Source of the DNA: Methanobacteriota archaeon
Lineage (GTDB): Archaea; Thermoplasmatota; Poseidoniia; Poseidoniales; Poseidoniaceae
DNA: 64,000 nt
Assembly (NCBI GenBank): GCA_004195635.1
Contig: PSPT01000017.1
Coordinates: 15,909 to 79,908 of the forward strand
Direction: 5' to 3'
In this document: piece after piece, positions 26,839-58,868 of the stretch
Position numbering within the stretch: the stretch's first letter is position 1
Layout of the letters: each line of letters begins with the position of its first letter
Translations under genes and position numbers: made by a program
The notes under the pieces: generated by a model
What the model saw: the letters and a program-made list of their open reading frames with translations, nothing else
The model's database searches: none
What the model was told of the DNA's origin: nothing

Positions 26839-26969
26839 ACGACTAAGCCTGCACTCATTAGTCAATAGTCTGCCGCAAAAATGTTACTAGTGATTTTTTG
26901 GAAAAAAATAGCAAAACTTGAATGGTAAAGCGGTGATAATATAGCCGACGGCCCCACCTGCGGTAACTA

Positions 26970-37007: not shown

Positions 37008-37205
37008 GTGCTTTGGGCTTATCCTTTTTGCGCTTATATTATCCCTGAATTGATTATCATTTTTCGAATTAATGAATTTATTTTTTTTAAATCAATATGG
37101 TTTGTGCCGGCAACTGACCCCTACGGGGTCCTTAACCGATGAGGCATAAGTTCAATAGTAAAAATGTTCAGTTCGGGCCGAGCGACGCTCATTGATGGTG
37201 GCATT

Positions 37206-40200: not shown

Positions 40201-42224
40201 AATATGTTCAGAAAATGATGTCAAATAATACCGATGCTGCAGATAAATGGTTTTTCACTACTATTGATGATAGCCACAATCCCAATATGGCAAAGGTATC
40301 TTACTATGTATCGGGAACAGATCCGGCAGGTAATCCGCTCAAATATTTGGCTGGAATGACCAATGATGAAGAACCGATTTGGATGCAATATGGGCCAGGG
40401 TTTGGTGCAGATACAGCAACTTACCTCACGAGGAAGGATTCAGATGCAGTGTTTACTGGCCTAGAATGGATTGGGCACTTTGATGATACTGCCATTTATG
40501 CAGGAACAGAACAAACCATCCTCCTCGGCCTATTAGATGCAAATACAGTGATTGATTTCGAGCACATCAGTCTAATTTTTGATTTTGAAGGACCTGACGC
40601 TTCAAAGGACCAGCAATTAATCGCCTTTTCTGGCATAAATAACACATTTTGGTCTGAGAGCGAATACATTACACTATCTCCTTCAAGCCATGTTACGACT
40701 ACAATAAACGAAACCGGAATGCCTTGGATTAAGGTTGCATTTAATTTTAGATTTAGTTGGGATTGGCCAGATGAAGAATGGGGTGATATCGCCTTTGTTT
40801 ACAAGGAAAGAGGTTCTGTTGAAGCAACTCGACTTGAATTTGCAGATAATTCTTTTAGGGTGGAAAATGATTTGGTGTTATCCGCTTCTTCCTTCTTAGT
40901 TTCGGATGTAACTGAACCGAGAGTAGGTCCAATTGCTGATGGTTCAAGAGTAAGGTCAGACGACCGCCTCTCATTTAGCGGTAAAGTAGTATTTGAGGGC
41001 TCAGATACTCCCGCTCCATTGAATGTTGGGATAAAGGTGGATGTCTTTGATGGAGTCAGTATTTGGAGTGACGGAAGCCTTGACGACACGGGTGGTTACA
41101 CAGTGGAAGTTCCACTTTCCGCCGCCACAAGCCTTGCCAGTTCTGAAACTAGAGTTTGTCTCATTTCTATCTCGGGGATTCCGGGGCGAGGTCAAGACAT
41201 GACTGGAAGTTCGGTATCAACTACACTTCGAGTTGTCGTTGACCACACGCCTCCAAGAATCACTCACCGAACCGAACCAATTGATGTGATTGATATTAGT
41301 GATGCAAGTGATTTAACCTCAGTAAATGTAGCATTTACTGGTTCCGAAGATGCCGATTTAACTGGAAGTAAACAATTTGTCAATTGGGTGATGCGCGACC
41401 ACACGAATACTATGACAATTGCTAGCGGTATTACCGAATTGGGTATGCAGCAAGAAGGAATGTTGATCAATTGGACCGGCTCAGTTGATATTACGAATGG
41501 TGGCGTTGTGACTCCTCGTGCAGGAGACCTCGTTGGATTTTGGGTTACTGGATATGATGCAGCAGGAAATTCATTCTTGGAAGTAGGAAATTCAGCAAGT
41601 AATCCAATCGCAGAATTGGCAGAAGCTGATGGCGATTATGAATTGTCTTGGCTGACTCTCGGCGCACAAGTTACTGAATTGTCAATTCTTGATATTTCGG
41701 TTGATGATGATCATATTAGCCCTGGTGCAAGTGTAAAAATTGAAGCAACAATTCAAAATACCGGAGGAAGTACTGCCAGTGCATTTTCAGTAAATTTCTA
41801 TGCAGGAAATAGCCAAAAGGCCTTCCATACCTCAACAATTCAAGGAATTAGTGAGGATGAGACACTAATCATTACAACAACTTGGAATGCAGAAGAAGGG
41901 GTTGACCGTGTGCGAGTTGTCGTAGATGTAGAGAATGTTATCATTGAAGTCAACGAGGAGGATAATTCAGCAGAGCATGGAATTGAAGTGGCTTATGTTT
42001 CAATGATGGGGTGGCTTGATAGTCCACGTGAAGCTCCTCTTGCATGGATATTTGCCTTTGTCTCAATTATTGTATTGATTACTGTATTCACTATTGCTAA
42101 CAAGACTGCCTTGCATAATCATGAAGGCAGTTTACTTGATGATGACTTTGATGATGATGACTTTGAGGAAGATGAGTTTGAGGATTTAGAAGACGATGAT
42201 TACGAAGAAGACGATGATGATTGA
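37206..42224 (+). CDS. giant (~1670 aa) membrane-anchored surface protein with C-terminal CARDB-like domain and poly-acidic tail
   Basis: Signal peptide MRIQVFLVLLFVSSIFAPLASGAS. CARDB pattern (IQNTGGSTASAFSVNFYAG...VVVDVENVIIEVNEEDN). TM (AWIFAFVSIIVLITVFTIA). Tail DDDFDDDDFEEDEFEDLEDDDYEEDDDD. Confidence 0.8.
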   Translation: MRIQVFLVLLFVSSIFAPLASGASTETQFNDGSTSYSRTFTASGTATAGDISIPYGAEVTSAEFNLLGAPSSSSWANLSTNADFGGAGTSNWIGQPPGMQQGYRNALEIENDEVQLQSTPTYLTTTFNNANSVSNLNGATLSTTGEYLSSATQDFKGVTSTPTPHQMKNGTWSYAGPTVNIGDERLVLMWSSTSVSPAPAFQRYNATTGEYNTSYTIQYSSCTSSTLAYIYDIEIDGKDLWIIGRSNRYLSKWTINGNYLTCQQYWMFSSPYYPSGVSVDPVTDQLFVYLYQQQSPSYNHYLWQVNRASPSIANQTFQLGSQQDFPSGNPAGLAVNGSRVTTNMQSTSYSFHHYFDFTGSWITHLGSKQFTNKGHYGLSNGEDGDLLFTCHYSNYCTASSRKVLRVGSGLTHTASTGSSSSSILVTGPTTQLSKTMTEVEVSSLVAYTPGNSTIEIQLSVDGGTTWLDAALGQPLTFAQAGSQLVWRAWLNGTTSETPVLDMVTLSYIASFLSSGYMYVRSSLISPVAATVWWNSTTPGGSRIDVSIQYGTSFSFTNSGQTKTITGSSANVYLYFYFYSGTGNAYTPTLHDFNVQFYTSAPKDVELNLGLSGGQSTTIWEHSGTFLGTETATQYPSGPTGISIADRFNDIIPSTGTGTIDLSVGITSSSAGIVSIDSFSITYTMQTVNLEIDYNSSLILHERQEPYEVVTRHIIGELSAEIDVVKLIFNAQPLGMAPMLEWDTHDSQPTASDPENWISIDPTSWMNESNGILEVHWRFKVLDDFPEQSYVRFTTSCTDSEGRTPSFLAGEDPLIVNHSFGMGWMNVQDNDGLVQWQDIPDNNWIAAGETIHFQGQLFFQNSFDAPKDNAFDIRVAQGSFVHSSWRDISNQNGTFFVSIDVPTIDVPDGVTYEVQSYNERDPTRVETPDHEWRRTFRIDATAPEAMGNIPLEGSYEAATDEQAIKFHVADATGSPTELNLNYWIEAEHDSNRNGIADADEYVQKMMSNNTDAADKWFFTTIDDSHNPNMAKVSYYVSGTDPAGNPLKYLAGMTNDEEPIWMQYGPGFGADTATYLTRKDSDAVFTGLEWIGHFDDTAIYAGTEQTILLGLLDANTVIDFEHISLIFDFEGPDASKDQQLIAFSGINNTFWSESEYITLSPSSHVTTTINETGMPWIKVAFNFRFSWDWPDEEWGDIAFVYKERGSVEATRLEFADNSFRVENDLVLSASSFLVSDVTEPRVGPIADGSRVRSDDRLSFSGKVVFEGSDTPAPLNVGIKVDVFDGVSIWSDGSLDDTGGYTVEVPLSAATSLASSETRVCLISISGIPGRGQDMTGSSVSTTLRVVVDHTPPRITHRTEPIDVIDISDASDLTSVNVAFTGSEDADLTGSKQFVNWVMRDHTNTMTIASGITELGMQQEGMLINWTGSVDITNGGVVTPRAGDLVGFWVTGYDAAGNSFLEVGNSASNPIAELAEADGDYELSWLTLGAQVTELSILDISVDDDHISPGASVKIEATIQNTGGSTASAFSVNFYAGNSQKAFHTSTIQGISEDETLIITTTWNAEEGVDRVRVVVDVENVIIEVNEEDNSAEHGIEVAYVSMMGWLDSPREAPLAWIFAFVSIIVLITVFTIANKTALHNHEGSLLDDDFDDDDFEEDEFEDLEDDDYEEDDDD

Positions 42225-45647: not shown

Positions 45648-46364
45648 ATGCGAGGGCTCACCATCCTTCTGCCAACTCTTGATGAGGAGGATGCTTTACT
45701 CGGTGTACTCGAAGAAATCCCTGTCGCCACACTCGAGCAACAAGGATGGTTCGTTGAAGTATTGGTTGTCGATGGCGGTAGTGTTGATGGCACAGTCCAA
45801 ATCGCCCAAGATTTTGGCTGCGAGGTAATTCTTCAAACAGCACAATCAGGAAAAGGTGCAGGTATGAGGATGGCTTTTGAGAAATTTATCACCTCGAAGA
45901 ATAGTGCACTTGTAATGATCGATGCAGATGGAACATATTCACCAAAAGATATCCCTCGGCTTCTTGCAAAATTGAAACATTATGATGTGGTGATGGGTTC
46001 ACGCCTTCGGGGTGAAATATCAGAAGGTGCTATGACAAGATTAAATTATATTGGTAATCATTTGTTAACTTGGCTCGCCGTCTCCCTTTATGGAGTTCCA
46101 ATTACAGACCTTTGTACTGGTGCATGGGCATTTAGGCGAGAATCAATTGAACAGATGGATCTAAACTCTATCCGCTTCGAAATAGAAGCAGAAATGTTTG
46201 CTAATTGCTCAAATACAGGCCTACGGATTACTCAAGTTCCAATTCGTTATGACAAACGAATCGGTGAAGCAAAGCTTGGTTCTGTTCGCGATGGGGCAAG
46301 TATTTTCCGCAAATTAATTGTGCGTAAATATTTCCCTTTTCCACATAATGATAATAACACATAG
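45648..46364 (+). CDS. family 2 glycosyltransferase (dolichyl-phosphate hexose synthase-like)
   Basis: ILLPTLDEE, VVDGGSVDGT and MIDADGTY (DxD) motifs; ~238 aa. Confidence 0.85.
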   Translation: MRGLTILLPTLDEEDALLGVLEEIPVATLEQQGWFVEVLVVDGGSVDGTVQIAQDFGCEVILQTAQSGKGAGMRMAFEKFITSKNSALVMIDADGTYSPKDIPRLLAKLKHYDVVMGSRLRGEISEGAMTRLNYIGNHLLTWLAVSLYGVPITDLCTGAWAFRRESIEQMDLNSIRFEIEAEMFANCSNTGLRITQVPIRYDKRIGEAKLGSVRDGASIFRKLIVRKYFPFPHNDNNT

Positions 46365-46382
46365 CGAATCACTCTTGAGCGA

Positions 46383-47558
46383 ATGGCCTCAGCCAAGTTC
46401 ATGAGCGAAAGGATTCCTGTCGCTGTGTTAGGCGCATCCGGCCTTGTCGGTCAGCGCTTTCAACAACGCTTGGTCAACCATCCCTGGTTTCGATTAGCAG
46501 TTGTAGTTGGAAGTGAAGAATCAGCAGGAAAACAACTTTCAGAGTTAGTTTGGCGATTGGACGAAAAGCGGCCAAATCTGCCTAATATCACAGTGATTTC
46601 GGGTGAAATTAGGGGGATAATTAGTCAATTAGAAAAAACGAATATCCAATTGGTTTTTTCAGCCCTTCCAAGTGCTCCAGCAAGTATTATTGAACAACAA
46701 CTTGCAGATGCAGGTTTTCACATTTTTAGTAATGCAAGTGCTCATCGTGAACAACCGGGGATGCCCTTAGTGATTGCCGATTTAAATCCTGAACATTTGA
46801 CCCATTTTGGCAGCCATAAACCAACACTAAAGCATCAATCTTCTGCAGCAAAGATGGATGGAGTGGAAGTTGCAGGTAGCATTGGCTCAATCACTTGCTC
46901 AACTAATTGTACAATCGTACCAATTGCCCTTCCTCTCAAAGCCTTGAGTCAAATCAACAAAATTATCAAGGTGGAAATAAAGACCCAACAGGCATTATCT
47001 GGTGGGGGCTGGAAGTTACTAAGTGACGAGAGTTCAGTTAACGGTAATCCTAATCCATTTATTCCTGGTGAAGAAGAAAAAGTAATATCTGAATTAAAGC
47101 ATTTATTGGGAGTAATAGATGAGCAGGTAATCATTCCTGCAGATATTGAAGTCACAGCAGAATGTGTTAGGGTAGGGGAAAGAGATGGGCATTTAGTTGA
47201 AGTTTCAGTTCATTTTGAGAATGTGATATCAGTAAGTGATGCCGAAAGAGCAATTTCTCAGTGGACTTGTTTTTCAGAAAATAATCTGCCTTCGGCACCG
47301 AAATCAATAATGCAAATCTGTAAAGAAATACCCAATCGAGTTGAACATTTATGGTTGGGGCAAGAAAATAATTTGTCGGAAGAACTGGACCCAAGTAAAG
47401 ATTTACGTGCAGGTATGGCAATAATGGTCGGAGGAATAAATAGTTCTAAAGCAAAAGTAATCAATTTCTTTGCTTTATCGCATAACACAATCAGGGGCGC
47501 AGCAGGAGGTTGTGTATTGTTGGCTGAATTAGTATATTCGCGTGGTTTGATAGTTTAA
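46383..47558 (+). CDS. asd: aspartate-semialdehyde dehydrogenase (archaeal type; malonyl-CoA reductase homologs cannot be excluded)
   Basis: VAVLGASGLVGQR Rossmann motif, active-site STNCT, and C-terminal HNTIRGAAGG. Confidence 0.75.
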   Translation: MASAKFMSERIPVAVLGASGLVGQRFQQRLVNHPWFRLAVVVGSEESAGKQLSELVWRLDEKRPNLPNITVISGEIRGIISQLEKTNIQLVFSALPSAPASIIEQQLADAGFHIFSNASAHREQPGMPLVIADLNPEHLTHFGSHKPTLKHQSSAAKMDGVEVAGSIGSITCSTNCTIVPIALPLKALSQINKIIKVEIKTQQALSGGGWKLLSDESSVNGNPNPFIPGEEEKVISELKHLLGVIDEQVIIPADIEVTAECVRVGERDGHLVEVSVHFENVISVSDAERAISQWTCFSENNLPSAPKSIMQICKEIPNRVEHLWLGQENNLSEELDPSKDLRAGMAIMVGGINSSKAKVINFFALSHNTIRGAAGGCVLLAELVYSRGLIV

Positions 47559-47621
47559 TCTATTGATTATGTAGCCATAGAACTCATAGGTTTGATTGAT
47601 GTCCACCCGCTTGGTGAGAAG

Positions 47622-49139
47622 ATGGGAATCACAGCAGTTCTTCCTAATATGACCATTACTCAACTCACCGATGAAGGCAACCAAAGGTGGCCTGGAGTTT
47701 GGTCCTCTGAGCAAAGCCGAGTATTAATTCTATTATTGTGTAAGCGAAAAGAGCGTAAATTGCTTGAAGTGCATGGGGATATGGTTGATCATGACCATCC
47801 TGTGTTCGGTTTGTTTTATCGTCCGCGAGAAACAGCAGATTTGTTGAAGGAGCAAGGTTTTGACCACCGCACAGCCTCTTTTGAATTAGTTGAAATTGCA
47901 ACATCTGACCTCGGCGCATGGTTACAACATTTGGTTACAAATGACAAATGGGTTCGTAGTATGACAACATTAACTCCAGTACCTACTGGTTATCAAGTTG
48001 GGATGACCAGAGGCTTTGAAAAAATGAACATTCCTTGTTTTAGACATCCTGAGTTATCTCCCCTCGATACATTCCATCTGCCAATGCCACCGCGAAGTAT
48101 TGTCGGTAAGGCATTTGTTAGTATTCCTAGATTAGGGGCAGAAGAATTAGCAAAAAGAAGAGGCTCGGATGCCGTTGTGCGTGATGGCACTGCATCTGTA
48201 TCGGACAAGTATGCAATCGCACAACCAACCTCCGATGGTTCAAGTGAAGGTGCAGTCCCACTTCCACCAGCCAGCCAAAGCAATACTGTTGTTTCATCTC
48301 AACAAACCCAACAAACCTCAACTCCAAAAATTGTGATCCTTAATTTAGGCAAAACGGAGGATGATAGTGCTGATCACTCTCAAGAAAGCGTTCCCCAAGT
48401 TACAATTCAGCCAGATTCAAGAGAATTAGGAATGGATGCGATGTCTTCGGCTCTTTCTGCTCTCGCAAGCGGAGCCGATTCGGTCGACAACGAGGCGAAA
48501 GATAGTGGCCTTGTAGATGTATTCACTCCAGATTTATTAGCCAGCGTCACCCATAGTGCCGGCGGAAATGTAACCGCTCAAACCCCTTCAGCCACTACGG
48601 CAGAAGTAGAAACCTCAACCCCCCTTCCTCCTCCAACTTCTGCCCCCTCGCCTCAGCCCGCTGCTTCTCAACCTGATGATAATGAAGAATTAGTGGAAGA
48701 ATTAGTATTGACATTCCCTGAATTAGATTCCGAGTTCACTGGAAATGGTCCAGGTATTCAGCCAAGCGGCCCCCCTTCCCCTCCAGTATCAAGTCCTCCT
48801 TCTGGTCCTCCTTCTGGTCCTCCAAGCGGCCCTCCTTCTCCTCCAGTAGCAAGTTCTCCTTCTGGTCCTCCTTCTGGTCCTCCAAGCGGCCCTCCTTCTC
48901 CTCCAGTAGCAAGTTCCCCTTCTAGACCTCCATCTGGTCCTCCAAGCGGCCCTCCTTCCCCGCCAATTCCGGCTGGACCTGAGGGAGATTTCCGTGCAAT
49001 TGTCAGTCAATTATTATCTGAAGGGATTCCAGCAAGTGATTTGATGGGCGACGAAAGATTTAGCGCTGTAAGTGAAGTTGCATTAGCAGCAGGAATTGAC
49101 ACATGGAGCATTTTCCTTGAGATTACAGGTGCTGCTTGA
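47622..49139 (+). CDS. cytoplasmic protein with unknown N-terminal domain, long disordered region and proline-rich tandem repeats
   Basis: No signal peptide. PSGPPSGPPSGPPSPPVASS repeated three times. Helical C-terminal ~55 aa. Confidence 0.6.
   Translation: MGITAVLPNMTITQLTDEGNQRWPGVWSSEQSRVLILLLCKRKERKLLEVHGDMVDHDHPVFGLFYRPRETADLLKEQGFDHRTASFELVEIATSDLGAWLQHLVTNDKWVRSMTTLTPVPTGYQVGMTRGFEKMNIPCFRHPELSPLDTFHLPMPPRSIVGKAFVSIPRLGAEELAKRRGSDAVVRDGTASVSDKYAIAQPTSDGSSEGAVPLPPASQSNTVVSSQQTQQTSTPKIVILNLGKTEDDSADHSQESVPQVTIQPDSRELGMDAMSSALSALASGADSVDNEAKDSGLVDVFTPDLLASVTHSAGGNVTAQTPSATTAEVETSTPLPPPTSAPSPQPAASQPDDNEELVEELVLTFPELDSEFTGNGPGIQPSGPPSPPVSSPPSGPPSGPPSGPPSPPVASSPSGPPSGPPSGPPSPPVASSPSRPPSGPPSGPPSPPIPAGPEGDFRAIVSQLLSEGIPASDLMGDERFSAVSEVALAAGIDTWSIFLEITGAA
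48761..48960 (+). repeat. ~3.3 copies of a 60-bp tandem repeat (92-97% identical)
   Basis: Copies at 48781-48840, 48841-48900 and 48901-48960 differ by 2 and 5 nt when compared directly. Confidence 0.9.
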
Positions 49140-49189
49140 GAATCATAAGTTTGAAAGCAGTAGGACATCAGCGATTACATGGTGATAGC

Positions 49190-49462
49190 ATGACTTATTG
49201 TGTTGGCTGCGGACAAGATATGCCTCAAATGATCAAATTTTGCCGTTTTTGTGGTGAACAACAACCTGGTCAACAATTGCTCGCTCGTCTTCAATCTGAA
49301 GCACAGCAAATCCAAACTCAAGCCCCTAATGGAGGGGTTGCAAAAAGTCCTCCCTCTGCAAATGAAACTATGTCAACTCTTGTTCGCCTTGAACAATTAC
49401 GAAAAGAAGCTGATGAGGCTGCTCGCCGCCGAGCCCAATTAGGCGGATACGGTCAGCGCTGA
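49190..49462 (+). CDS. zinc-ribbon domain protein
   Basis: MTYCVGCG..(9)..CRFCG followed by a Q-rich helical tail; 90 aa. Confidence 0.5.
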   Translation: MTYCVGCGQDMPQMIKFCRFCGEQQPGQQLLARLQSEAQQIQTQAPNGGVAKSPPSANETMSTLVRLEQLRKEADEAARRRAQLGGYGQR

Positions 49463-49483
49463 ATACCTTTATTCCATGGGGTG

Positions 49484-50113
49484 ATGATAATGCGCCTACG
49501 TCACTTGGCGATGCGATTGTCACAATTATTGACAATTCAAAATGCCAAACCTAAGTTAGAGCAATATCCCACGGAAGGACAACTAGCCGCCCGATGGCTT
49601 GGACTTCTTGCAATGGATGATTCATTGATTGGGGCTAATGTAGTAGATTTGGGAGCAGGTGCAGGAGTCCTTGGTTTAGGGTGTGCATATCTTGGTGCAA
49701 AATCAGTGACATTAATCGAGGCTGACCCCGAATCTGTAGCGATTGCTGAGGAGAATGCAATTCGAGTAAGAAGCGAAACAAATTGTGAAATAGCGGTTAT
49801 TTGTGAAAAAATCCAGGGGCGATTGCCCGAAGGAATTAAGGTTGATGTAATTATCATGAATCCACCTTGGGGATTCCAAACTAAAGGCGCTGACCGGCCA
49901 ATCATTGAGGCTGCATTTGCATCTTCAGCGAAGGTAATTCATTTGCTTCATAGTAAAAAAGCGACTCATATTGAAGGGATGGCTAATGCTGCAAATTGGC
50001 AAGCCGAAAAGGAATTCAGTTGCATATTTTCATTGCCACCAAGCATGCAACACCACAAGAAAAAATCATCAACAACTCGCTGCCAAGTTTGGAAAATTAC
50101 CCCGAAAAGGTAG
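49484..50113 (+). CDS. class I SAM methyltransferase, METTL5/COG2263-like (N6-adenine, NPPW motif)
   Basis: PKLEQYPT, VVDLGAGAGVLG (motif I), and IIMNPPWG (motif IV). Confidence 0.6.
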   Translation: MIMRLRHLAMRLSQLLTIQNAKPKLEQYPTEGQLAARWLGLLAMDDSLIGANVVDLGAGAGVLGLGCAYLGAKSVTLIEADPESVAIAEENAIRVRSETNCEIAVICEKIQGRLPEGIKVDVIIMNPPWGFQTKGADRPIIEAAFASSAKVIHLLHSKKATHIEGMANAANWQAEKEFSCIFSLPPSMQHHKKKSSTTRCQVWKITPKR

Positions 50114-50211: not shown

Positions 50212-51978
50212 TTAGAAAAACCGGAGAATATTTTCGTGATCTTTGGAATTGATGTCAGAGTATAGTAATGCTTGTGTGGGATTTTGAAAAGGGTCTTCTC
50301 CTTTATTTTTTGACAATAGTCTCGCTCGCTTAGAAATTATTTTCCATGCGGTTTTCTCCCCAATTCCAGGAATTGCTTGCAATTGTTTTTGGGTACAAGT
50401 ATTGATGTCAAGATTAGATTCAACTGCAGAAATGCTGCGTTTTCCATGCCCTGTCACAATAATATCACTTTCAGATTCTAGTGGAATCAAATAAGGCACG
50501 CCTATCAAAATGGGGTATGCACCGATTTGACGGCCGAAAGTAATTCCAGATTTACCATGAATAGATGGGTCCTGTAATTCAGGCTCAAGGTGCCGAGGTA
50601 AGCGGAATCTTGTTTCATGGCTCTCCCATGTTACGCGCTTTAATTGTTCTCCAATCGGAAATAATTCCTGCAAGAGCGGCGCATCGATTTCATCTCTCAC
50701 CCAAGTTTTGAAATTTGTGAAATCTTTTTCATCAACAGTTTGAAAACCTTCACCCTCAACCTGACGAATATTTATTCTGCGTAGCCACATCCCTTCCCTT
50801 TTTAAATCTCTAAGGAGTTTTTTATTTAGGTTGTATGACTCACTTGATTCACCGTTTAGACCTGCGATGAAATTCAACCCCGGAAGGAGTTTTGGCAAGC
50901 CTCTATTTCCTCTTTTTCGGCCATATTGATTGATATGTCGGATAGCAACTTTCAGTTGCTCACTTGAACAATTCAACCAATTTTCTTTGTGAACAATTGG
51001 GTCAGCACTTTCAAGTCCAAAAGATAATACTGAACCATCACTTAGTGTATCACAAAGTAGTTTGGTTATTTCAGTCGCAGGCTCAATATTTTCGGCTATT
51101 ATTGATGGGTTGGCGTTATCGGTATGCAAGATATCTAGGCGCTCATCCTCACGCATCCCGTAAAGCAATTTGCCAATTGGCCCGGGGTTAGGAATTGGGT
51201 ATTCCAAATCAATAACTCCTTCGGCCATGTATGTGTAAACATCTGTCATCCCTCCCAATCTAAAGTGTGTGACTCCTGAATTTAATGCCGCATTCACTTC
51301 GGCGAGAATGGAATCTACAGGGCGATCTTTTGGGATACCCTTTTTTGGCTCAATGCAAAATTTACAGCCATTCCTAAACCTCACGCACCCTTGATAAACT
51401 TCCACTTCATAGGTTAATGGCCCATGGAGGTCTTGGTTTTTTGTGACTGCTTTTGATGATGCTCCTGCGATTGCCCATTTTTCCCATTGTTCGGCAGTAC
51501 GACGTTGATGTTTCCAGTTATTTGTGTTGAGAAAGTTATTGAGAGTAGCATCAATATCTTGAACAGTAAGGAATAGGTTTTGCTTTAATGGATTCCAGCC
51601 CTGTTGGCGCCAGCCACGAATCGCCCATCCACCAGCAAGAAATGGGACACTACGTGGATGAGCTGATATGATTTCACGTGCCTCTTTATGCGAAATCGGA
51701 GTGCCTCTAAGATACTTTCCCGGAACAATTGCTCCAGCAATTAGGACAGTTCCAAGCAAGTTATTAATTCCTATTCTATTCAAAATCTCACTTGGGCTAT
51801 CTGACTTTAGGCTATATCTTCTCCATTCATCAATAGTGACATATTCATAAGGAATATTGTGTGATTCAAGAACTCCTGCTACATATCTCACATGAAATCC
51901 AATGTAAGGGGGAACGCCAAATGCCGCTGGTTCATCTTCATATCCATCAAGGAGAAGCCATTTCGCCTCTCCATCCAT
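50212..51978 (-). CDS. radical SAM superfamily enzyme with C-terminal helix-hairpin-helix (COG1031-like)
   Basis: Cys cluster region GCVRFRNGCKFC. C-terminal HhH LQAIPGIGEKTAWKII. About 590 aa. Confidence 0.65.
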   Translation of the reverse strand: MDGEAKWLLLDGYEDEPAAFGVPPYIGFHVRYVAGVLESHNIPYEYVTIDEWRRYSLKSDSPSEILNRIGINNLLGTVLIAGAIVPGKYLRGTPISHKEAREIISAHPRSVPFLAGGWAIRGWRQQGWNPLKQNLFLTVQDIDATLNNFLNTNNWKHQRRTAEQWEKWAIAGASSKAVTKNQDLHGPLTYEVEVYQGCVRFRNGCKFCIEPKKGIPKDRPVDSILAEVNAALNSGVTHFRLGGMTDVYTYMAEGVIDLEYPIPNPGPIGKLLYGMREDERLDILHTDNANPSIIAENIEPATEITKLLCDTLSDGSVLSFGLESADPIVHKENWLNCSSEQLKVAIRHINQYGRKRGNRGLPKLLPGLNFIAGLNGESSESYNLNKKLLRDLKREGMWLRRINIRQVEGEGFQTVDEKDFTNFKTWVRDEIDAPLLQELFPIGEQLKRVTWESHETRFRLPRHLEPELQDPSIHGKSGITFGRQIGAYPILIGVPYLIPLESESDIIVTGHGKRSISAVESNLDINTCTQKQLQAIPGIGEKTAWKIISKRARLLSKNKGEDPFQNPTQALLYSDINSKDHENILRFF

Positions 51979-52001
51979 AAAATGGTCCACCGCCGTTCGA
52001 A

Positions 52002-53483
52002 TTAATCGCCAATTCCTTCTTCGCGGCGCGCACGTTCTTCACGAGATGAACGGCCATCTTCTCCTTCACCTTTACGATTATTGTCGCTTCGATTTTCTCG
52101 GCTACTGTTTTTACCTCGATGTTCATTGCCGCCTCGGTTTCCTCGGCTACTGTCTTTGCCACCGCGAGGTTTGTCAGTTGCGATTTGAACTTTGAGAGTA
52201 CGACCTTCAATTTTGTATGTGTCAAGTTCAGATACTGCTGTCTTTGCATCAGCATCTTTCATTGTAACGAAACCGAATCCCTTAGAGCGTCCAGTAGATC
52301 GGTCTGAAATGACCTTGCAATCAACAACTTCTCCGTGGTTTGCGAATAATGTTTTGAGTCCATCATCGCTCATACTCCAAGGTAAGCCGCCAACATAGAT
52401 TCGAGTTCCAGCCGGGCGGGCTGGGCGGTCACGTCCGCCTTTCTTTCCAGCATCAGCATCGTTTACAGTTAATCTTCGGCCATGGAAATCAGCTTTATGC
52501 ATTGCAGCAATTGCCTTTTCAGAATCTTCTTTTGAATCAAAAGTAACAAAACCGAAACCTCTGTTATTACCGGTATCTTTGTCAACCATTACGATAGCAT
52601 CATTGATTTTACCGTGAACTGCAAATGATTCCTTCAATTGGTCGGTACTTACGCCGCGAGAAATTCCTCCAACGAATAACTTGAATCCTTTGATTTGGGG
52701 GCGCCCTCCTCCTCCAGCTCCACCGCGACGGTCTCCGCCGCCATCGCCAAAGTTCATGAGGCTGACATTTGAGCCATCATTTCTAACATCGGCAGCAATT
52801 AGTGTACTCCTTGCAGCAGGACCCTTGGCAAAATAGTCTTCTGCCGCTTTACCCCAGCGCTTTCCTGGTTTGTTGAGTTTACTTGAACCGCCTTCAACAA
52901 CATCGTATCCAAGGCCATATCCATCAGAAAGCACTCTAAATGCAGTGTGTGAACAAGTTGGGCATTTAACATTCCAGTCATCTTCTTCATTGTTGGGTTG
53001 TAGTGTATCACCACATTGTGGGCAAAGAGCATGGATGACTCCACAACCGTTGTGGTCTCTCATTTCAAGTCGAATGACAGGAGAAACTTGGGATACTTTT
53101 GCTCGAATGATATCTCTGCGTCGAACTCCATCGCGTGCTTCATGCATGTAACGGTTAACGAATTTTGTTACATGAGTTTGACCAACGAGTTGGCTGGGAA
53201 GTAAGTCGCGAAATTCCCTTCCTTCAATTTCAAGAATTGTTGACTCAATCATTGATTCTCGGATTTTCCAAACTTCGGCAATAACGACATCGCCAATCTC
53301 AACTAAGCGTAGCCCTTCTCCAGCGCAAATGACACTTACTTGGTTTTCATCAGAATTGAAGTGAACATGTCCAGTTGTGGTTGAAGTCCAATTGCCATTA
53401 TGGGCAACTACGCCTACACCGGCACTCCAATCGCTTTCAATTGCTACTACTTCGCCAGGAATTACTATACTTGATTCACTCAT
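52002..53483 (-). CDS. csl4: exosome cap protein Csl4 (N-domain + S1 + Zn-ribbon) fused to two RRM domains and an RGG-like tail
   Basis: aa 1-195 are collinear with archaeal Csl4 (VIPGE..., S1-like core, CPQCG...CPTCS ribbon, SDGYGLG). RRM1 (52458..52682) has LFVGGI and RGFGFVTF. RRM2 (52176..52403) has IYVGGL and KGFGFVTM. There is a Gly-rich linker and an R/G/S/E-rich tail. Confidence 0.8.
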   Translation of the reverse strand: MSESSIVIPGEVVAIESDWSAGVGVVAHNGNWTSTTTGHVHFNSDENQVSVICAGEGLRLVEIGDVVIAEVWKIRESMIESTILEIEGREFRDLLPSQLVGQTHVTKFVNRYMHEARDGVRRRDIIRAKVSQVSPVIRLEMRDHNGCGVIHALCPQCGDTLQPNNEEDDWNVKCPTCSHTAFRVLSDGYGLGYDVVEGGSSKLNKPGKRWGKAAEDYFAKGPAARSTLIAADVRNDGSNVSLMNFGDGGGDRRGGAGGGGRPQIKGFKLFVGGISRGVSTDQLKESFAVHGKINDAIVMVDKDTGNNRGFGFVTFDSKEDSEKAIAAMHKADFHGRRLTVNDADAGKKGGRDRPARPAGTRIYVGGLPWSMSDDGLKTLFANHGEVVDCKVISDRSTGRSKGFGFVTMKDADAKTAVSELDTYKIEGRTLKVQIATDKPRGGKDSSRGNRGGNEHRGKNSSRENRSDNNRKGEGEDGRSSREERARREEGIGD

Positions 53484-53725: not shown

Positions 53726-54313
53726 ATGGAAAAGCCCAATACAATGGCTATGGGCGAAATATTTTCTATGGACCATTATTACATTCAAACAAAATTTTTT
53801 AGAATTTTTGGCGGATCTTTTTTGTTCAAGGATATGAATGACCAAGTTGTTGCTTTTTCAAAACAAAAGCGCTTCAAATTAAAGGAAGATATTGTTCTCT
53901 ATTCAGATGAAACATGTACGCAACCATTACTTTCAATAAAAGCAAGAAGCATGATTGATTTGTGGTCAACATACGACATTGTTGATTTAACTACTGGTGA
54001 AAACCTTGGTGCTGCGCGTCGTAAAGGGCTCAAGTCAATTTTCAAAGATACATGGAAAATACTTGATGCTAATGGGAACGAATATGCTGAATTGGTTGAA
54101 GATAGCATTGCAATTGTAAGAAGATTTATCCCATTTATTCCGGCAAAATTTCACTTCAGCATCCAAGGTCAGCAAGATATAATGATGCATCAAAGATTTA
54201 ACCCAATCATACAAAAGACCGATATAATAATACCTCAAGATCATCCATTGGATAGGAGAGTAATTGCGGCTGTCGCTTTACTAAATTCAGCAATTGAAGG
54301 TCGACAAGGTTAA
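53726..54313 (+). CDS. LURP-one-related/Tubby C-terminal-like (DUF567) protein, tentative
   Basis: About 195 aa with an alternating beta-strand pattern (F.I.....F..KDMN.QVVAF..QK.F.LKEDI.LY.D....PLLSIK.R) reminiscent of the LOR/scramblase fold. Weak call. Confidence 0.4.
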   Translation: MEKPNTMAMGEIFSMDHYYIQTKFFRIFGGSFLFKDMNDQVVAFSKQKRFKLKEDIVLYSDETCTQPLLSIKARSMIDLWSTYDIVDLTTGENLGAARRKGLKSIFKDTWKILDANGNEYAELVEDSIAIVRRFIPFIPAKFHFSIQGQQDIMMHQRFNPIIQKTDIIIPQDHPLDRRVIAAVALLNSAIEGRQG

Positions 54314-55259: not shown

Positions 55260-58200
55260 TCACTTCTTTCCACCATGCGAGAAATCTGGTGCGCTAGGAA
55301 CATTTGAGTATACGTTTTCACCTTGAGTTACATACTTTCCTTGGGGCGAATACTCACTTTCAACACCATTGTGGGTTGGGTAGTTTGCTTGTTGCTGCCC
55401 ATACGCAGGTGGATTAGATGCGTACTGATTGCTTGCATATTTTCCTTGAGCAGGACCTATCTGGCCAGTATTCTTTCTGTCTCCTCCGCGCCGGCCCAAT
55501 AAGAGGCCAATCAGTGCAATCAATAGAACTGATAAAGTAAAGATTGCAATGTAAGTTGGGGTGATTTGGGAAAGGCCCTCGGGACCTAAATTAGTTGCAC
55601 TGCCACCAGTACTACCATTTCCTGAATTAGATCCATTACCACCACCCCCGTTAGTATTGTCACCATTTCCAGTATCGATTACTTCAATCACAGAGATTAT
55701 TCCATCTTGACAGGAAGAAACATTTTCTCGGCTAACGCATGCAGTCCATGAGAAGTTGCCAATTTCAAGATATGTGTGAGAAACATTTCCTCCGTTGTAG
55801 GGTGAGCCTTCAATTGTCCAATTTATTGTGTCATTAGTATCAATCGCTTGGGCACTATAGTTCACCATGCCACCTTGTTCAACATGGCCACTTGACGATA
55901 CCGAAGTTTGAAGACTTGCAAATCCAATTTCGGTAGGTGGGCTTGTGCCCTCATCCACTTCATCATCACAATCATCATCAATTCCATTCCATATTTCTTC
56001 GGCGCCAGGGAATACTTCAGCATTTGTGTCATTACAGTCGGCGAAATGATACCAATTATCCAAATCTTCGTCAGGGTCAAAAACCAGTGGGTCGGACATG
56101 TATACATTTACTTCGGCTCCATCGGGTATTCCGTCTCCATCGGTATCAGGATTAGTCCAATTTGTCGTGTAATTATGATATTCAAGATAATCGGTTAACC
56201 CGTCTTCATCATGGTCTGATGTGAGAAAAGCCTCGTCAATAATATCGTTGCAATTTTGGTCTATTCCATCAAGAATCTCAGTAGCATTTGGATATATGCT
56301 CGCATCGGTATCATTACAGTCTTGGAACCAATAGAAACCATCCAAGTCAGTATCTGGGTCATATACAAGTGGGTCGGTACCTAAGACATTCACTTCATCA
56401 CCATCTTCAAGCCCATCAGCATCAGTATCATTATCTTGATAATTTGTTAGATGAGTGTGCCATTCTGCATAATCACTCAACCCATCAGTATCATAATCTG
56501 ACATGTTATAGCCTTCATCGATTACATCATTGCAATTATCATCATAACCATTCAATAATTCAAAGGCGCCAGGCTTGATTTGAGCATTTGAGTCATTACA
56601 GTCTTGGAACCAATAGAAGCCATCAGTATCGGCATCTGGATCATAAACGGTTGGATTTGTGTTGTGGATCTTAACCTCATCGCCATCGGTCAGTCCATCA
56701 TCATCTGAATCATAATCAAGTGGGTTTGTTCCATGTGTATTTACTTCAACACCATCATCAAGCCCATCTAAATCAGAGTCATTCACATTTGGGTCAGTAT
56801 TCCATACCATTACTTCGTCCCAATCACTCAAACCATCATCATCAGAGTCAATATCAAATGGGTCAGTATGCCAAGTGTCAGTCTCATTACTATCCCACAA
56901 ACCATCGCCATCTGAATCGGTTGTAATGGTTGTTCCATGGATAGATAGTGCCCAATGATTCCAAGTTCCGGCATCGCCATTACCCATATCCCTAACTTTG
57001 AGTTGCCATTCACCATCGCTCATTTCATCCCAGTGCAATGTTGAGGTGAATAACCATTCATTCCAATTATTGCCACTGTCGCCATGCTTTTCAATTAATT
57101 TTGATTCAGTTCCATCTGGTGAAACGAGGGTCAAATCCAAATCACCGCGATAATTGTGGTCAGCATCAAAGAGAACTTCAACAGTTTCAACTTTTATGCC
57201 GGCACTTACGTTTAGATATTCTGTGGTCCAAGAAGCACTATTATCGGGGATAGTAGTTCCTACATTTATTTGACCAGAAGTCCAATTGTCTTCTGCACGT
57301 ACATTTGTCCAATTTGCGGCGAGGTTTGTGGCTGCGCCGGCATCAATCATGCCATGGCCATATTCGTGGTTAATTTCAAGACCTGCACCATTTGTTGTCC
57401 AACCGCTATTGCCCGCATCCACTTTATGGGCAGAATTAACCAAAATATGCTGAACATCCCTCCAAGTAAGGTTGGGGTTAGCATCGTAAACCAAGCCAAT
57501 AATTCCACTAACAAGGGGAGTGGCGCTTGATGTGCCACCAAAAGAATTAGTCCAGTCGCCATTAGAATAGCCTCCGCTTCCTTCTATGTCTGTGGTGGTG
57601 ATTCCCGATGCTCCGCCATCGGAAGGAGCGACCACGATTAGATTTGCACCGGGTTCCGAATAATAAGAACGGTCTCCACCATCGTCAACGGCTCCGATGG
57701 CGAGGGTAAAACGGCTATTTGCATATCCGTCATAATTTGAATCATCATTATTACTTCCTCCATTTCCGCCAGCGAATGTAATGATTCCGCCTAAGCCATT
57801 TCGTCCACCATAGGCTTGTTCCTCAAAAGCAGCAAGCATTAATGGCCCCGGTGCTTCTTTGGTATAGCCATTATCATTGGGTCCCCAAGAATTTGAATAG
57901 ATATCCACTGCGCCTTTTTGGTGCAATAAGCCATTGGATTCCATATTGTCATTCATGCTACAGGCAATGAGCAAAATCCCAATTAGGTCAGCATTCATGC
58001 TGGCTCCAGTAACACCGTAGTTGTCATTTCCATATGCTGCAGCAACCCCTGCTGCAGAAGTACCATGCCCATTCCAACTACTTGGGTCTGGGTTGGCATC
58101 ATTTGCACAATAATCATAGTCAAGCGATGATTTGTAATTTGGTGAAAGGTCATCGTGAGTAGTATCAAGTCCATCATCAACTATCGCAATCAGCACACCA

Positions 58201-58868
58201 GAACCATCATAATTATCCCACGCACCGGTAATATTGACGTCTTCACCAGAAGTTCCACCGCCTTGCCCGGTGTTTTGCAAGTGCCATTGATCAGAGAATT
58301 TTGTGTCACTGGGAATTAACCGTGGTGTTCGAATAGTTTCTCTCATTGGGTGAAAAGTTTCAACAAAGGGTAGGTCATCATTAGCAGTGGAAGATAAAAT
58401 GTATTCATCAGATGGGTTATTTACGCCGGCGGCTTTTGAGAGAATGGAATTGGCTTCAGAACCACTTTCAAAACTCATTATCCAAGTGCCAGAAAGAATT
58501 GTACTTTCTAGCGAATGCGCACCTAACTGCTTTGCATAAGGCATTACTTCGGTTCTGCTTTGACAACCTACTTCTGAAAGAACAACTAACCACTTGGCAG
58601 TCGATTCACCAATTTGCGGTTCATCTTCTGCGTTTGCTGCCTCTCGTCTAAATGCAGTTTGGACATGTGGTGAATAAGTGCTTAATCCACATTCATTTTG
58701 GCCGTCTTCAACATTTGAAAAAGAGGAGGGAGAGAGGTTATCCATGTGAATAATATTAGAAATAGATGTTGAGTCATCTTGGAAATTGGAGGCGAATGAA
58801 ATCATCATTGGAGAAAGTAATGAGAGGAGCAGAAATCCGGCCATCGCCACTCCATTCCGGTATTGCAT
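55260..58868 (-). CDS. membrane-anchored subtilisin/kexin-like serine protease (S8) with P-domain, TSP3-type Ca-binding repeats and Cys-rich MopE-like repeats
   Basis: Catalytic triad contexts VDDGLD, HGTSAAGV and GTSSATPLVSG. P-domain pattern DLDLTLVSPDGTES...GEWQLKVRD...W.L.IHG. D-x-D-x-DGL repeats. CND..A.I.PGA.E..NG.D.NCND..DE repeats. C-terminal TM. Confidence 0.9.
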   Translation of the reverse strand: MQYRNGVAMAGFLLLSLLSPMMISFASNFQDDSTSISNIIHMDNLSPSSFSNVEDGQNECGLSTYSPHVQTAFRREAANAEDEPQIGESTAKWLVVLSEVGCQSRTEVMPYAKQLGAHSLESTILSGTWIMSFESGSEANSILSKAAGVNNPSDEYILSSTANDDLPFVETFHPMRETIRTPRLIPSDTKFSDQWHLQNTGQGGGTSGEDVNITGAWDNYDGSGVLIAIVDDGLDTTHDDLSPNYKSSLDYDYCANDANPDPSSWNGHGTSAAGVAAAYGNDNYGVTGASMNADLIGILLIACSMNDNMESNGLLHQKGAVDIYSNSWGPNDNGYTKEAPGPLMLAAFEEQAYGGRNGLGGIITFAGGNGGSNNDDSNYDGYANSRFTLAIGAVDDGGDRSYYSEPGANLIVVAPSDGGASGITTTDIEGSGGYSNGDWTNSFGGTSSATPLVSGIIGLVYDANPNLTWRDVQHILVNSAHKVDAGNSGWTTNGAGLEINHEYGHGMIDAGAATNLAANWTNVRAEDNWTSGQINVGTTIPDNSASWTTEYLNVSAGIKVETVEVLFDADHNYRGDLDLTLVSPDGTESKLIEKHGDSGNNWNEWLFTSTLHWDEMSDGEWQLKVRDMGNGDAGTWNHWALSIHGTTITTDSDGDGLWDSNETDTWHTDPFDIDSDDDGLSDWDEVMVWNTDPNVNDSDLDGLDDGVEVNTHGTNPLDYDSDDDGLTDGDEVKIHNTNPTVYDPDADTDGFYWFQDCNDSNAQIKPGAFELLNGYDDNCNDVIDEGYNMSDYDTDGLSDYAEWHTHLTNYQDNDTDADGLEDGDEVNVLGTDPLVYDPDTDLDGFYWFQDCNDTDASIYPNATEILDGIDQNCNDIIDEAFLTSDHDEDGLTDYLEYHNYTTNWTNPDTDGDGIPDGAEVNVYMSDPLVFDPDEDLDNWYHFADCNDTNAEVFPGAEEIWNGIDDDCDDEVDEGTSPPTEIGFASLQTSVSSSGHVEQGGMVNYSAQAIDTNDTINWTIEGSPYNGGNVSHTYLEIGNFSWTACVSRENVSSCQDGIISVIEVIDTGNGDNTNGGGGNGSNSGNGSTGGSATNLGPEGLSQITPTYIAIFTLSVLLIALIGLLLGRRGGDRKNTGQIGPAQGKYASNQYASNPPAYGQQQANYPTHNGVESEYSPQGKYVTQGENVYSNVPSAPDFSHGGKK
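55960..56660 (-). repeat. ~2.5 copies of a ~279-bp intragenic repeat (Cys-rich metal-binding-like + TSP3 unit)
   Basis: The WFQDCND/HFADCND-encoding segments recur at ~56040, ~56320 and ~56600. Confidence 0.75.

Follow-up and report, generated by a model that had tools for sequence, protein, structure and literature searches.

The stretch of DNA analysed here (the window, 64 kb) carries on its minus strand a gene, csl4-RRM, whose 493-aa product (plus stop) begins at an ATG with GGTGA just before it. The plus-strand translation of the same interval was full of stops. The encoded domains are, in order, a Csl4 portion (N-terminal domain, S1 barrel, four-Cys zinc ribbon), a Gly/Arg linker, two RRMs and a low-complexity tail. 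The initial annotation had reported an ORF here with a set of quoted motifs, and all of them (CPQC...CPTC, DGYGLG, GGGDRRGGAGGGGRP, LFVGGI/RGFGFVTF and IYVGGL/KGFGFVTM) were recovered in the ORF. The minus-strand orientation, an extension at aa 196-245, a C-terminal motif at aa ~476-493 and an operon partner are additions to that description. The features of the locus are as follows.

52002..53483, minus strand: csl4-RRM gene (ORF list, Csl4 equivalog match, two RRM_1 matches)
53319..53483, minus strand: Csl4 N-terminal domain, aa ~1-55 (ECR1_N at aa 6-41; aligned to 2BA1_A; pLDDT ~90)
53049..53318, minus strand: S1-like beta-barrel, aa ~56-145 (collinear with A. fulgidus Csl4; strands at 66-140 in the models)
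52899..53048, minus strand: zinc-ribbon domain, aa ~146-195, ending in DGYGLG (aligned to the 2BA1_A C-terminus)
52749..52898, minus strand: conserved family-specific extension, aa 196-245 (LN..GKRWG..AE..FAKGPA.R...AD.R.DG)
52689..52748, minus strand: Gly/Arg-rich disordered linker, aa 246-265 (pLDDT <50; conservation 0.40)
52455..52688, minus strand: RRM1, aa 266-343 (RRM_1 at aa 269-338; RNP2 LFVGGI, RNP1 RGFGFVTF)
52407..52454, minus strand: inter-RRM linker, aa 344-359 (low pLDDT at aa 346-353; 29% mean identity)
52176..52406, minus strand: RRM2, aa 360-436 (second RRM_1 stretch; RNP2 IYVGGL, RNP1 KGFGFVTM)
52059..52175, minus strand: variable R/G/S/E/N-rich low-complexity tail, aa 437-475 (pLDDT ~32)
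52005..52058, minus strand: conserved C-terminal motif, aa ~476-493, RSSREERARREEGIGD (predicted short helix at 481-488)
50212..51990, minus strand: radical-SAM protein with a C-terminal helix-hairpin-helix, COG1031/arCOG01359 type (Radical_SAM and HHH matches)
49481..50113, plus strand: MTS-type methyltransferase, COG2263/K07579 type (MTS/PrmA matches)

Concerning the N-terminal half, the first ~195 aa had been described as collinear with archaeal Csl4, and this was borne out by both profile and structure comparisons. The NCBIfam Csl4 equivalog PRK09521.1 (NF034126) scored 121.2 bits against a cutoff of 90, with the match spanning aa 6-190 and profile positions 2-179 of 180. Two relatives with other architectures also exceeded this cutoff (P0041, 92.8 bits; P0193, 109.3 bits). 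Among the other profiles proposed for the comparison, RRM_1 scored above its threshold, Pfam ECR1_N fell just below (26.9 bits against 27.0, aa 6-41) and the Pfam S1 model gave no match to the protein at the sequence level; the S1 and N-terminal regions both lie inside the structural match to Csl4. Csl4 from A. fulgidus (2BA1_A) was the sole PDB match of the N-terminal half in phmmer (aa 6-192 on 3-177). When the AlphaFold model of aa 1-262 was searched with Foldseek, the top 19 PDB fold matches were all Csl4 chains, with 2BA1_A ranking first (E 1.3e-15, TM 0.68). The N-terminal domain of Csl4 is the ring anchor in solved exosomes, and its V.PG motif was retained, V7, P9 and G10 each being at least 97% conserved among 82 sequences. 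The zinc ligands C154, C157, C174 and C177 were each conserved to the same degree (at least 97%) in these sequences, and the four-Cys pattern was present in all 85 ORFs passing the motif filter; of the four ligands, only two remain in the P0040 lineage. The closest standalone Csl4s share 31-34% identity with the Csl4 half, A. fulgidus Csl4 and the standalone Csl4 P0121 25-28%. This half of the protein is a divergent but complete Csl4.

The C-terminal half contains two RRMs that the initial annotation had called textbook examples, a description that held up at the level of profile, residue and fold. Pfam RRM_1 matched in two stretches (137 bits against a gathering threshold of 20.7, E 1.9e-40). 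The aromatic residues F270, F310 and F312 of RRM1 and Y363 of RRM2 were at least 97% conserved among the 82 sequences, and Y363, F403 and F405 were invariant in a second alignment (A2). DSSP assigned E-H-E-E-H-E to aa 267-342 and 360-434 of the model (pLDDT ~90), corresponding to the beta-alpha-beta-beta-alpha-beta fold, and in Foldseek the full model matched the tandem RRMs of HuR, Sxl and hnRNP A1. RRM1 is common to all three architectures of the family, whereas the P0041 and P0193 types are without RRM2. The best-scoring profile for the RRMs was the bacterial single-RRM Rbp_regulator (NF058537), with both domains below its cutoff of 100 (RRM1, 66.5 bits; RRM2, 91.1 bits); the 148 bits obtained with the whole protein are the sum of the two RRMs. 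Eukaryotic PABP, ELAV/Hu, hnRNP, SF-CC1 and U2AF profiles were all far under their subfamily cutoffs (PABP, 95.6 against 497; SF-CC1, 111.8 against 231.65). A word-indexed search with RRM1 alone gave no matches, and the same tool, when given the Csl4 half, missed the 96%-identical P0001. P0044, the top non-family match at 182 bits, was considered as a possible eukaryotic RRM donor and rejected, since its score sums ~8 RRMs at 28-32% per repeat.

The primary structure contains two further conserved elements. One is the 50-aa extension that follows the zinc ribbon and lies past the end of the Csl4 profile. Its blocks are the most conserved of the protein (0.78-0.88 among the 82 sequences), with G207, R209, W210, E215, D232 and R234 invariant. 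The first half of the extension is modelled as three short helices, and the second half, though conserved, has no confident fold (pLDDT 84-90 for aa 191-226, about 50-63 for aa 229-245). The Gly/Arg linker that follows contains RRGG. The other element is the C-terminal motif RSSRE..A..EEG, with a conservation of 0.81-0.82 among the 82 sequences immediately past a tail whose columns show the lowest values in the protein (0.10-0.23). The motif was present in 82 of 85 ORFs, and the one-RRM protein P0193 also carries it (RELNAMLEEG). A role in binding partners is the most likely one for the C-terminal motif and for the extension, above all its residues 229-245. The tail itself had been described as RGG-like; it is indeed rich in R, G, E and S and predicted to be disordered, but with only two RGG triplets and five RG/GR dipeptides in aa 437-475, and as the least conserved region, it fits the RGG-like description only in part.

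The gene joins two modules in a metagenome assembly, where a misassembly, a chimeric contig or a frameshift linking csl4 to a separate RRM gene is plausible beforehand. We surveyed related genomes for the fusion, as the initial annotation had suggested. A single uninterrupted ORF with both halves was found at all 85 fusion loci fetched, which come from different studies and assemblers and include a 2.06-Mb MG-II chromosome. A scan of GTDB (alignment A2) found relatives in 187 stretches, and the best 80 of the 187 all reach into or through RRM2. Family members are located on ENA contigs of 2.04-2.07 Mb, which carry P0156 and P0158, and on chromosome CM001443.1. The family comprises about 43 protein clusters at 29-96% identity, the closest relative being P0001 (96%), and the junction region is highly conserved in spite of divergence down to 29%. 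GC3 and codon use are uniform across the Csl4/RRM junction. Some database entries, a few in all, are frameshifted or truncated versions of the gene. Because of the 85 independent loci and the uniform composition, misassembly or frameshift, which had been named as what would refute the initial annotation, is excluded, and the chance that the fusion is an artefact is negligible. csl4-RRM is a real, conserved gene. The named members of the family suggest two RRMs in Poseidoniaceae and a CxxC-x17-CxxC finger plus one RRM in Thalassarchaeaceae.

We examined the neighbouring genes. The radical-SAM gene was found downstream of csl4-RRM in about 80 of the 85 loci, starting 11-23 nt past the csl4-RRM stop codon; its assignment to COG1031/arCOG01359 is borrowed from the syntenic gene in Damashek 2021 (PMC9723583). 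The methyltransferase, whose COG2263/K07579 assignment likewise comes via a table of that study (PMC9723583), immediately precedes csl4-RRM in about 80 of the 85 loci, and in about 80 the three genes are arranged as methyltransferase, csl4-RRM, radical SAM; in the 64-kb window the methyltransferase is inverted and downstream. The standalone Csl4 P0121 has the same COG2263 methyltransferase as its upstream neighbour. csl4-RRM thus occupies the ancestral Csl4 locus beside the COG2263 methylase. No Rrp41, Rrp42 or Rrp4 gene lies within the window or its flanks, and no RNase PH gene was detected near csl4-RRM when the window and the loci fetched first were searched by tblastn with three Rrp41 queries (Sso, Pab and one other). 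Scans of the sequence against Rfam gave no matches, and scans for sigma-70 promoters and terminators found none, the promoter consensus being one that does not apply to archaea.

In order to find out whether these archaea harbour another Csl4, database-wide searches were combined with local synteny. A word-indexed search with the Csl4 half returned one standalone Csl4 and missed P0001, and was replaced by an exhaustive HMMER search. In this search, fusion-family members were found at 33-55% identity and standalone Csl4s only at 34% or less, with none above about 34%. Two csl4 copies at one locus were seen in none of the 85 loci. Short matches of 160-280 aa (39-46% identity) were considered as standalone paralogs and turned out to be truncated or frameshifted fragments of the fusion. 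The Prokka name csl4_1 was likewise set aside as a hint of a second gene, as most genes of that table bear _1/_2 suffixes. csl4-RRM is apparently the only detectable Csl4 of Marine Group II archaea. As for the other exosome components, which the initial annotation had proposed to survey, published tables covering 250 MGII MAGs indicate that they are near-universal: RRP4, RRP41 and RRP42 are present in 137-138 of 158 and 85-86 of 92 genomes, and DnaG in 132 of 158 and 84 of 92, counts comparable to that of alaS (Tully 2019, PMC6336850). The supplements of Dombrowski 2020 do not tabulate the Poseidoniales exosome genes. In one MAG, rrp4-rrp41-rrp42, dnaG and the RRM-bearing csl4 occur together, with low but non-zero transcript values (Damashek 2021, PMC9723583).

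Taking into account the ancestral Csl4 locus, the lack of any standalone Csl4 paralog in our searches and the near-universal presence of Rrp4, Rrp41, Rrp42 and DnaG in Poseidoniales, csl4-RRM most likely encodes a working cap subunit with an RNA-recruiting arm in cis. It is probably the orthologous, and apparently only, exosome Csl4 of Poseidoniales, with a lineage-specific RNA-binding arm fixed at its C-terminus. Of the two readings offered in the initial annotation, a cap subunit that carries a eukaryote-like module for recruiting RNA and a Csl4 repurposed outside the exosome, we favour the first; we infer that the protein sits on the ring, binds RNA and acts in recruitment. We count against the cap-subunit reading the divergence of the Csl4 half, the loss of zinc ligands in P0040, the retention of DnaG and the low transcript values in the MAG.

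The second reading holds that the protein has left the exosome and works on its own as an RNA-binding protein or chaperone of several domains (S1, zinc ribbon and RRMs), with a cap made of Rrp4 only. It could draw on the divergence of the Csl4 half, with ECR1_N marginal and Pfam S1 absent, on the Rbp_regulator profile as the best match of the RRMs and on the KEGG/JGI names CIRBP, PABPC or nucleolin, and exosomes without Csl4 are present in Undinarchaeota and Cluster 2 DPANN (PMC7414124). On the other hand, more than 80 species show strong conservation of the ring-anchor motif and of all three Csl4 domains, the ancestral csl4 locus has been kept, and all three architectures pass the Csl4 equivalog cutoff. 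Moreover, DnaG of Sulfolobus requires Csl4 for binding to the exosome (PMC3672285), and DnaG is kept as a core gene. We therefore consider repurposing unlikely. Roles that such a protein might have are cold adaptation or RNA stabilization, as in cyanobacterial Rbp, plant GRP and chloroplast cpRNP.

With csl4-RRM taken as a cap subunit, the following arrangement can be proposed. The Csl4 N-terminal domain would anchor the protein on the phosphorolytic Rrp41-Rrp42 ring, with the S1 barrel forming the lining of the entry pore and the zinc ribbon seated at its rim. The 50-aa extension would lead away from there via the flexible Gly/Arg linker to the two RRMs, or, in Thalassarchaeaceae, to an arm with one RRM plus the CxxC-x17-CxxC finger, and the arm would end in the low-complexity tail followed by the short conserved acidic helix. 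By catching single-stranded RNA, the tethered RRMs may enrich it locally over the pore, and this capture would set the choice of RNAs for 3'-to-5' degradation or A-rich tailing. The arm would thereby take on in cis the part that DnaG plays in trans in other archaea, in parallel with RRM adaptors of eukaryotes such as RBM7/NEXT. As DnaG is retained, the RRMs do not simply replace it. A more elaborate version, which we put forward tentatively, is an 'adaptor-in-cis' exosome of Poseidoniales, in which the RRM arm might decide which transcripts are tailed or degraded, the extension and the RE..A..EEG helix might be new docking elements coupling the cap to DnaG, the ribosome or an RNA-modification enzyme, and the arm might have been rewired differently in the two families.

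The protein could also be a cap subunit whose arm serves another purpose, either as a tether to a particular RNP or pathway (pre-rRNA, ribosome maturation) or as an autoinhibitory or regulatory module acting through the extension and the acidic C-terminal helix. Conservation is higher in the extension and C-terminal motif than in the RRMs, suggesting protein-protein contacts, and residues 229-245 are conserved yet not self-folding. The gene lies in a tight, conserved operon with the genes of the COG2263 RNA-methylase type and the radical-SAM/HhH type, and rRNA is a known client of the exosome, since DnaG enables rRNA tailing in Sulfolobus (PMC4227792). However, the COG2263-csl4 pairing is older than the fusion and thus says little about the arm, the canonical and conserved RNP1/RNP2 aromatics fit generic binding of single-stranded RNA, and the sequence names no partner or specific target. 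An arm of this kind seems unlikely.

The cap-subunit reading can be compared with known systems. Archaeal Csl4 (A. fulgidus AF0206, PDB 2BA1/3M7N; S. solfataricus) agrees with csl4-RRM in its three domains and their order, in the four zinc ligands and in the V.PG motif, and shares the COG2263 methylase neighbour. In contrast, csl4-RRM adds about 300 C-terminal residues (extension, linker, one or two RRMs, tail and motif), and identity to 2BA1_A is only ~25%. The closest counterpart in topology is artificial. [quoted passage not shown] 2014, PMC4227792). The chimera places an RNA-binding domain at the Csl4 C-terminus exactly as in csl4-RRM, with the DnaG domain instead of RRMs, whereas csl4-RRM is natural and has further conserved elements. 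Archaeal DnaG is also an extra RNA-binding module on the cap, attached via Csl4 and favouring poly(A) and rRNA. It is a separate TOPRIM-fold polypeptide, still encoded in Poseidoniales, so the RRM arm comes in addition to it.

Among eukaryotic systems, the RRM domains of Nrd1/Nab3 select RNAs for exosome decay. Bacterial PNPase is an RNase PH-type phosphorolytic ring with RNA-binding domains covalently placed above the pore; these are KH and S1 domains on the catalytic chain, whereas in csl4-RRM the RRMs are on the cap subunit. PNPase was also among the RNase PH matches. RBM7 in NEXT likewise selects RNAs for exosome decay with an RRM. One published paper covers RBM7 (PMC5146272). The eukaryotic RRM adaptors act in trans via the Mtr4 helicase, as proteins separate from the core subunits, and the homology implied with csl4-RRM is that of the generic RRM fold only. 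Small bacterial and plastid RRM proteins (Rbp_regulator, chloroplast cS22/cpRNPs, Gly-rich RNA-binding proteins) gave the highest scores for the individual RRMs, among profiles and PDB entries alike, and combine, as csl4-RRM does, an RRM with Gly/Arg-rich segments. They are without the Csl4 module, and the RRMs of csl4-RRM are under the Rbp_regulator cutoff.

The initial annotation knew of no description of an RRM fused to an exosome cap subunit, and our literature search, which found no published account of a Csl4-RRM fusion, agrees. The gene is already annotated in NCBI and JGI and stands unremarked in one published supplementary table. What is known of the specificity of the archaeal exosome comes from Rrp4 and the loosely attached DnaG. 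Few archaea are as abundant in the surface ocean as Marine Group II, and here one of the commonest planktonic orders of archaea has canonical RRMs hard-wired onto a core subunit of the cap, alongside two other strongly conserved elements. csl4-RRM offers a compact system in which to study the steering of an RNase PH-type machine by an RNA-binding arm, and a natural counterpart to the engineered Csl4 fusion that works in vitro. If true, the adaptor-in-cis exosome would be a natural archaeal experiment in substrate targeting, parallel to the NEXT/TRAMP-type adaptors of eukaryotes. There is also a consequence for annotation. The KEGG and JGI names for family members are CIRBP, PABPC or nucleolin; KEGG-based pipelines appear to label the proteins PABPC or CIRBP, and for this reason Csl4 looks absent from MGII core-gene lists.

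The gene under study and its downstream neighbour lie as follows:

52002..53483, minus strand: csl4-RRM, an ORF of 493 aa in the ORF listing
50212-51990, minus strand: a radical-SAM protein with a C-terminal helix-hairpin-helix (HhH), COG1031/arCOG01359 type, named miaB by Prokka

GGTGA lies directly 5' of the csl4-RRM start ATG at 53483, and the opposite (plus) strand at 52002..53483 is stop-riddled. The initial annotation had recognized Csl4 and two RRMs here, and all of the motifs it cited were found in the 493-aa translation. Its domain assignment was confirmed at several levels. The Csl4 equivalog profile PRK09521.1 (NCBIfam, cutoff 90 bits) gave 121.2 bits, with aa 6-190 aligned to profile positions 2-179 of 180, and Pfam RRM_1 matched twice (E 1.9e-40). 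Pfam ECR1_N fell just short of its cutoff (26.9 versus 27.0 bits), and there was no sequence-level match to Pfam S1. The sole PDB sequence match of the N-terminal half was Csl4 from A. fulgidus (2BA1_A, E 5e-10, aa 6-192 on 3-177). In the AlphaFold model of the whole protein (mean pLDDT 76), the Csl4 and RRM domains were confident and the joins at aa 226-262, 346-353 and 438-479 disordered; structure matches were 2BA1_A and tandem RRMs such as those of HuR, Sxl and hnRNP A1. A second model of aa 1-262 only, built from 41 sequences (mean pLDDT 82), had Csl4 chains (archaeal, fungal, yeast and human) as all of its top 19 PDB matches, ranking above Rrp4 and Rrp40.

We then considered whether a misassembly or frameshift had joined two genes. 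A full-length search returned approximately 43 clusters of like architecture (29-96% identity), some of whose members sit on ENA contigs 2.04 and 2.07 Mb long. A GTDB scan with one genome per species revealed 187 stretches encoding relatives, including one on the 2.06-Mb MG-II chromosome CM001443.1; the best 80 of the 187 reach at least into or through RRM2. Both halves were within one ORF in all 85 fetched fusion loci; L018 is truncated by a contig edge, and L079, an intact 540-aa ORF, fell outside the motif filter. GC3 was 0.28-0.36 in all folded parts of csl4-RRM and 0.30-0.38 in adjacent genes. The single-ORF loci, Mb-scale contigs and even GC3 exclude an artefactual join, in agreement with the initial reading of a genuine fusion.

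Family members are labelled Candidatus Poseidoniales, Poseidoniaceae or Poseidonia sp., or carry the older labels 'Euryarchaeota', 'Methanobacteriota' and 'Thermoplasmatota archaeon'. The closest species representative is SI053_bin59 (96% identity). A Poseidoniales csl4-RRM with the usual synteny also turns up in GTDB species genomes under three unexpected titles, 'Deltaproteobacteria bacterium AH-558-G13', 'Yoonia sp. YZ14D_8.59' and 'Verrucomicrobiales bacterium ARS100' (L012, L016 and L031), probably through mis-binned or mislabelled contigs.

An exhaustive HMMER search with the Csl4 half only, against 1.84 billion representatives, gave fusion-family matches at 100-240 bits (33-55% identity) and ordinary Csl4s of ~190 aa at no more than 87 bits and 34% identity. 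Short matches with 39-46% identity were rejected as standalone Csl4 proteins, being truncated or frameshifted fusion fragments. None of the fetched loci contained two csl4 copies. Exosome ring genes were not found in the window or flanks with an Rrp41 probe identical to 2BR2_B. In the 'MGII Core' list (Tully 2019, PMC6336850, Suppl. Data 10), RRP4, RRP41, RRP42 and dnaG are present in 132-138/158 and 84-86/92 genomes, equal to alaS, and CSL4 is absent. In the same study, 'PABPC' is a core gene of one family (77/~92 genomes and none outside it), as 'CIRBP' is of the MGIIb sheet (143/~158 genomes, again none outside). The JGI name of P0041, a member of our family, is 'cold-inducible RNA-binding protein'. 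Judging from names and counts, both rows are probably Csl4-RRM fusions misnamed by KEGG GhostKOALA. One MGII MAG (Damashek 2021, PMC9723583, suppl. file 4) harbours rrp4-rrp41-rrp42 adjoining SDO1, dnaG, and a ~423-aa 'Csl4' with RRM_1 as best Pfam and non-zero transcript values, located between the COG2263 (methyltransferase, K07579) and COG1031/arCOG01359 (radical-SAM) genes.

The order methyltransferase, csl4-RRM, radical SAM/HhH was observed in ~80 of 85 loci, usually preceded by GT2-asd-orf515. Here, 11-23 nt separate csl4-RRM from the radical-SAM gene, and the two are translationally close-coupled; in the P0040 lineage (L001) the radical-SAM start overlaps the csl4-RRM stop. The GT2-asd-orf515-methyltransferase block, at 45648-50113 in the window, is inverted and follows the radical-SAM gene here and at two other loci; in nearly all others it lies upstream of csl4-RRM in the same orientation. 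A standalone Csl4 locus (L006) lacks the radical-SAM/HhH gene. An MTS-type methyltransferase is also directly upstream of a standalone 186-aa Csl4 from another lineage (P0121). The methyltransferase-csl4 pairing is therefore older than the fusion, whose gene sits at the ancestral csl4 locus. Two nearby ORFs had no Pfam or NCBIfam match: an ORF of 515 aa flanked by asd and the methyltransferase gene (47592-49139, +), syntenic in most loci, and a 195-aa ORF divergent from csl4-RRM (53726-54313, +). The window also contains very large ORFs of 1804 aa (21451-26865, -), 1686 aa (37164-42224, +) and 1202 aa (55260-58868, -). On visual inspection, the last resembles a subtilisin-like protease that has Asp-rich repeat modules of the calcium-binding type and a membrane anchor at its C-terminus.

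Conservation was computed over 82 species-level sequences. It peaked, above the S1 barrel and RRMs, in an extension formed by the 50 residues that follow the zinc ribbon (aa 196-245; 0.78-0.88 per 10-residue block; consensus LN..GKRWG..AE..FAKGPA.R...AD.R.DG). The first half of the extension forms three short helices in the aa 1-262 model (pLDDT 84-90). Residues 229-245 are as conserved but of low confidence, a combination that fits a partner-dependent segment. Conservation was lowest in the R/G/S/E tail (0.10-0.23) and returned to 0.81-0.82 in the C-terminal ~15 residues (RSSREERARREEG), a motif found in 82/85 ORFs and in the one-RRM relative P0193. RRM1 and RRM2, 35% identical to each other, showed mean pairwise identities of 52% and 44%, respectively. 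The family comprises three architectures:

Csl4-extension-RRM-RRM: most loci
Csl4-extension-CxxC-x17-CxxC finger-RRM: P0041/P0195 type, labelled Thalassarchaeaceae
Csl4-extension-RRM with a Lys-rich tail: P0193

Concerning the origin of the RRMs, full-length matches beyond the family were eukaryotic multi-RRM proteins (~30-35% identity over approximately one third of the query). The top match was rejected as a source, as its score merely sums ~8 RRM repeats. The best profile for each RRM was a bacterial single-RRM profile, yet under the cutoff (66.5 and 91.1 against 100), and csl4-RRM approached no cutoff of the eukaryotic RRM subfamily profiles. A full-text literature search, covering few subscription journals, found no description of an RRM-bearing archaeal Csl4, as the initial annotation had supposed for exosome cap subunits, although such absence is not proof.

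It is established that the cap is anchored to Rrp41-Rrp42 through the N-terminal domain of Csl4, that DnaG binds via Csl4, and that RNA preference is determined by the cap together with DnaG (PMC3672285, PMC4227792). Hou et al. (2014) extended Csl4 at its C-terminus with the RNA-binding N-terminal domain of DnaG. This chimera bound poly(A), and exosome reconstituted with it broke down A-rich RNA more quickly than exosome containing plain Csl4, whether the latter included DnaG or not (PMC4227792). The topology of the Poseidoniales protein is identical, with an RNA-binding domain C-terminal to Csl4, although one is engineered and the other natural. On this likeness, we propose that the RRM part may recruit RNA in cis, as an arm above the pore of the S1 barrels; a cap made entirely of Csl4 could carry as many as three such arms per complex. 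We infer that Csl4-RRM assembles into the exosome and binds RNA, and our best guess is that the extension and C-terminal motif dock a partner.

In the P0040 cluster ('Thermoplasmatota archaeon', 2-Mb contigs), two of the four zinc-ribbon Cys residues are replaced by Ser with the architecture otherwise kept. Other archaeal Csl4s (P0199, P0205, P0237 and the P0201 cluster) carry long, disordered N-terminal extensions rich in Arg, Gly, Asp and Glu (e.g. RDGERRDLRE repeats), and a Methanosarcina Csl4 is annotated with an N-terminal extension of ~80 aa (267 aa vs 213 aa). Low-complexity decoration of Csl4 may be recurrent.
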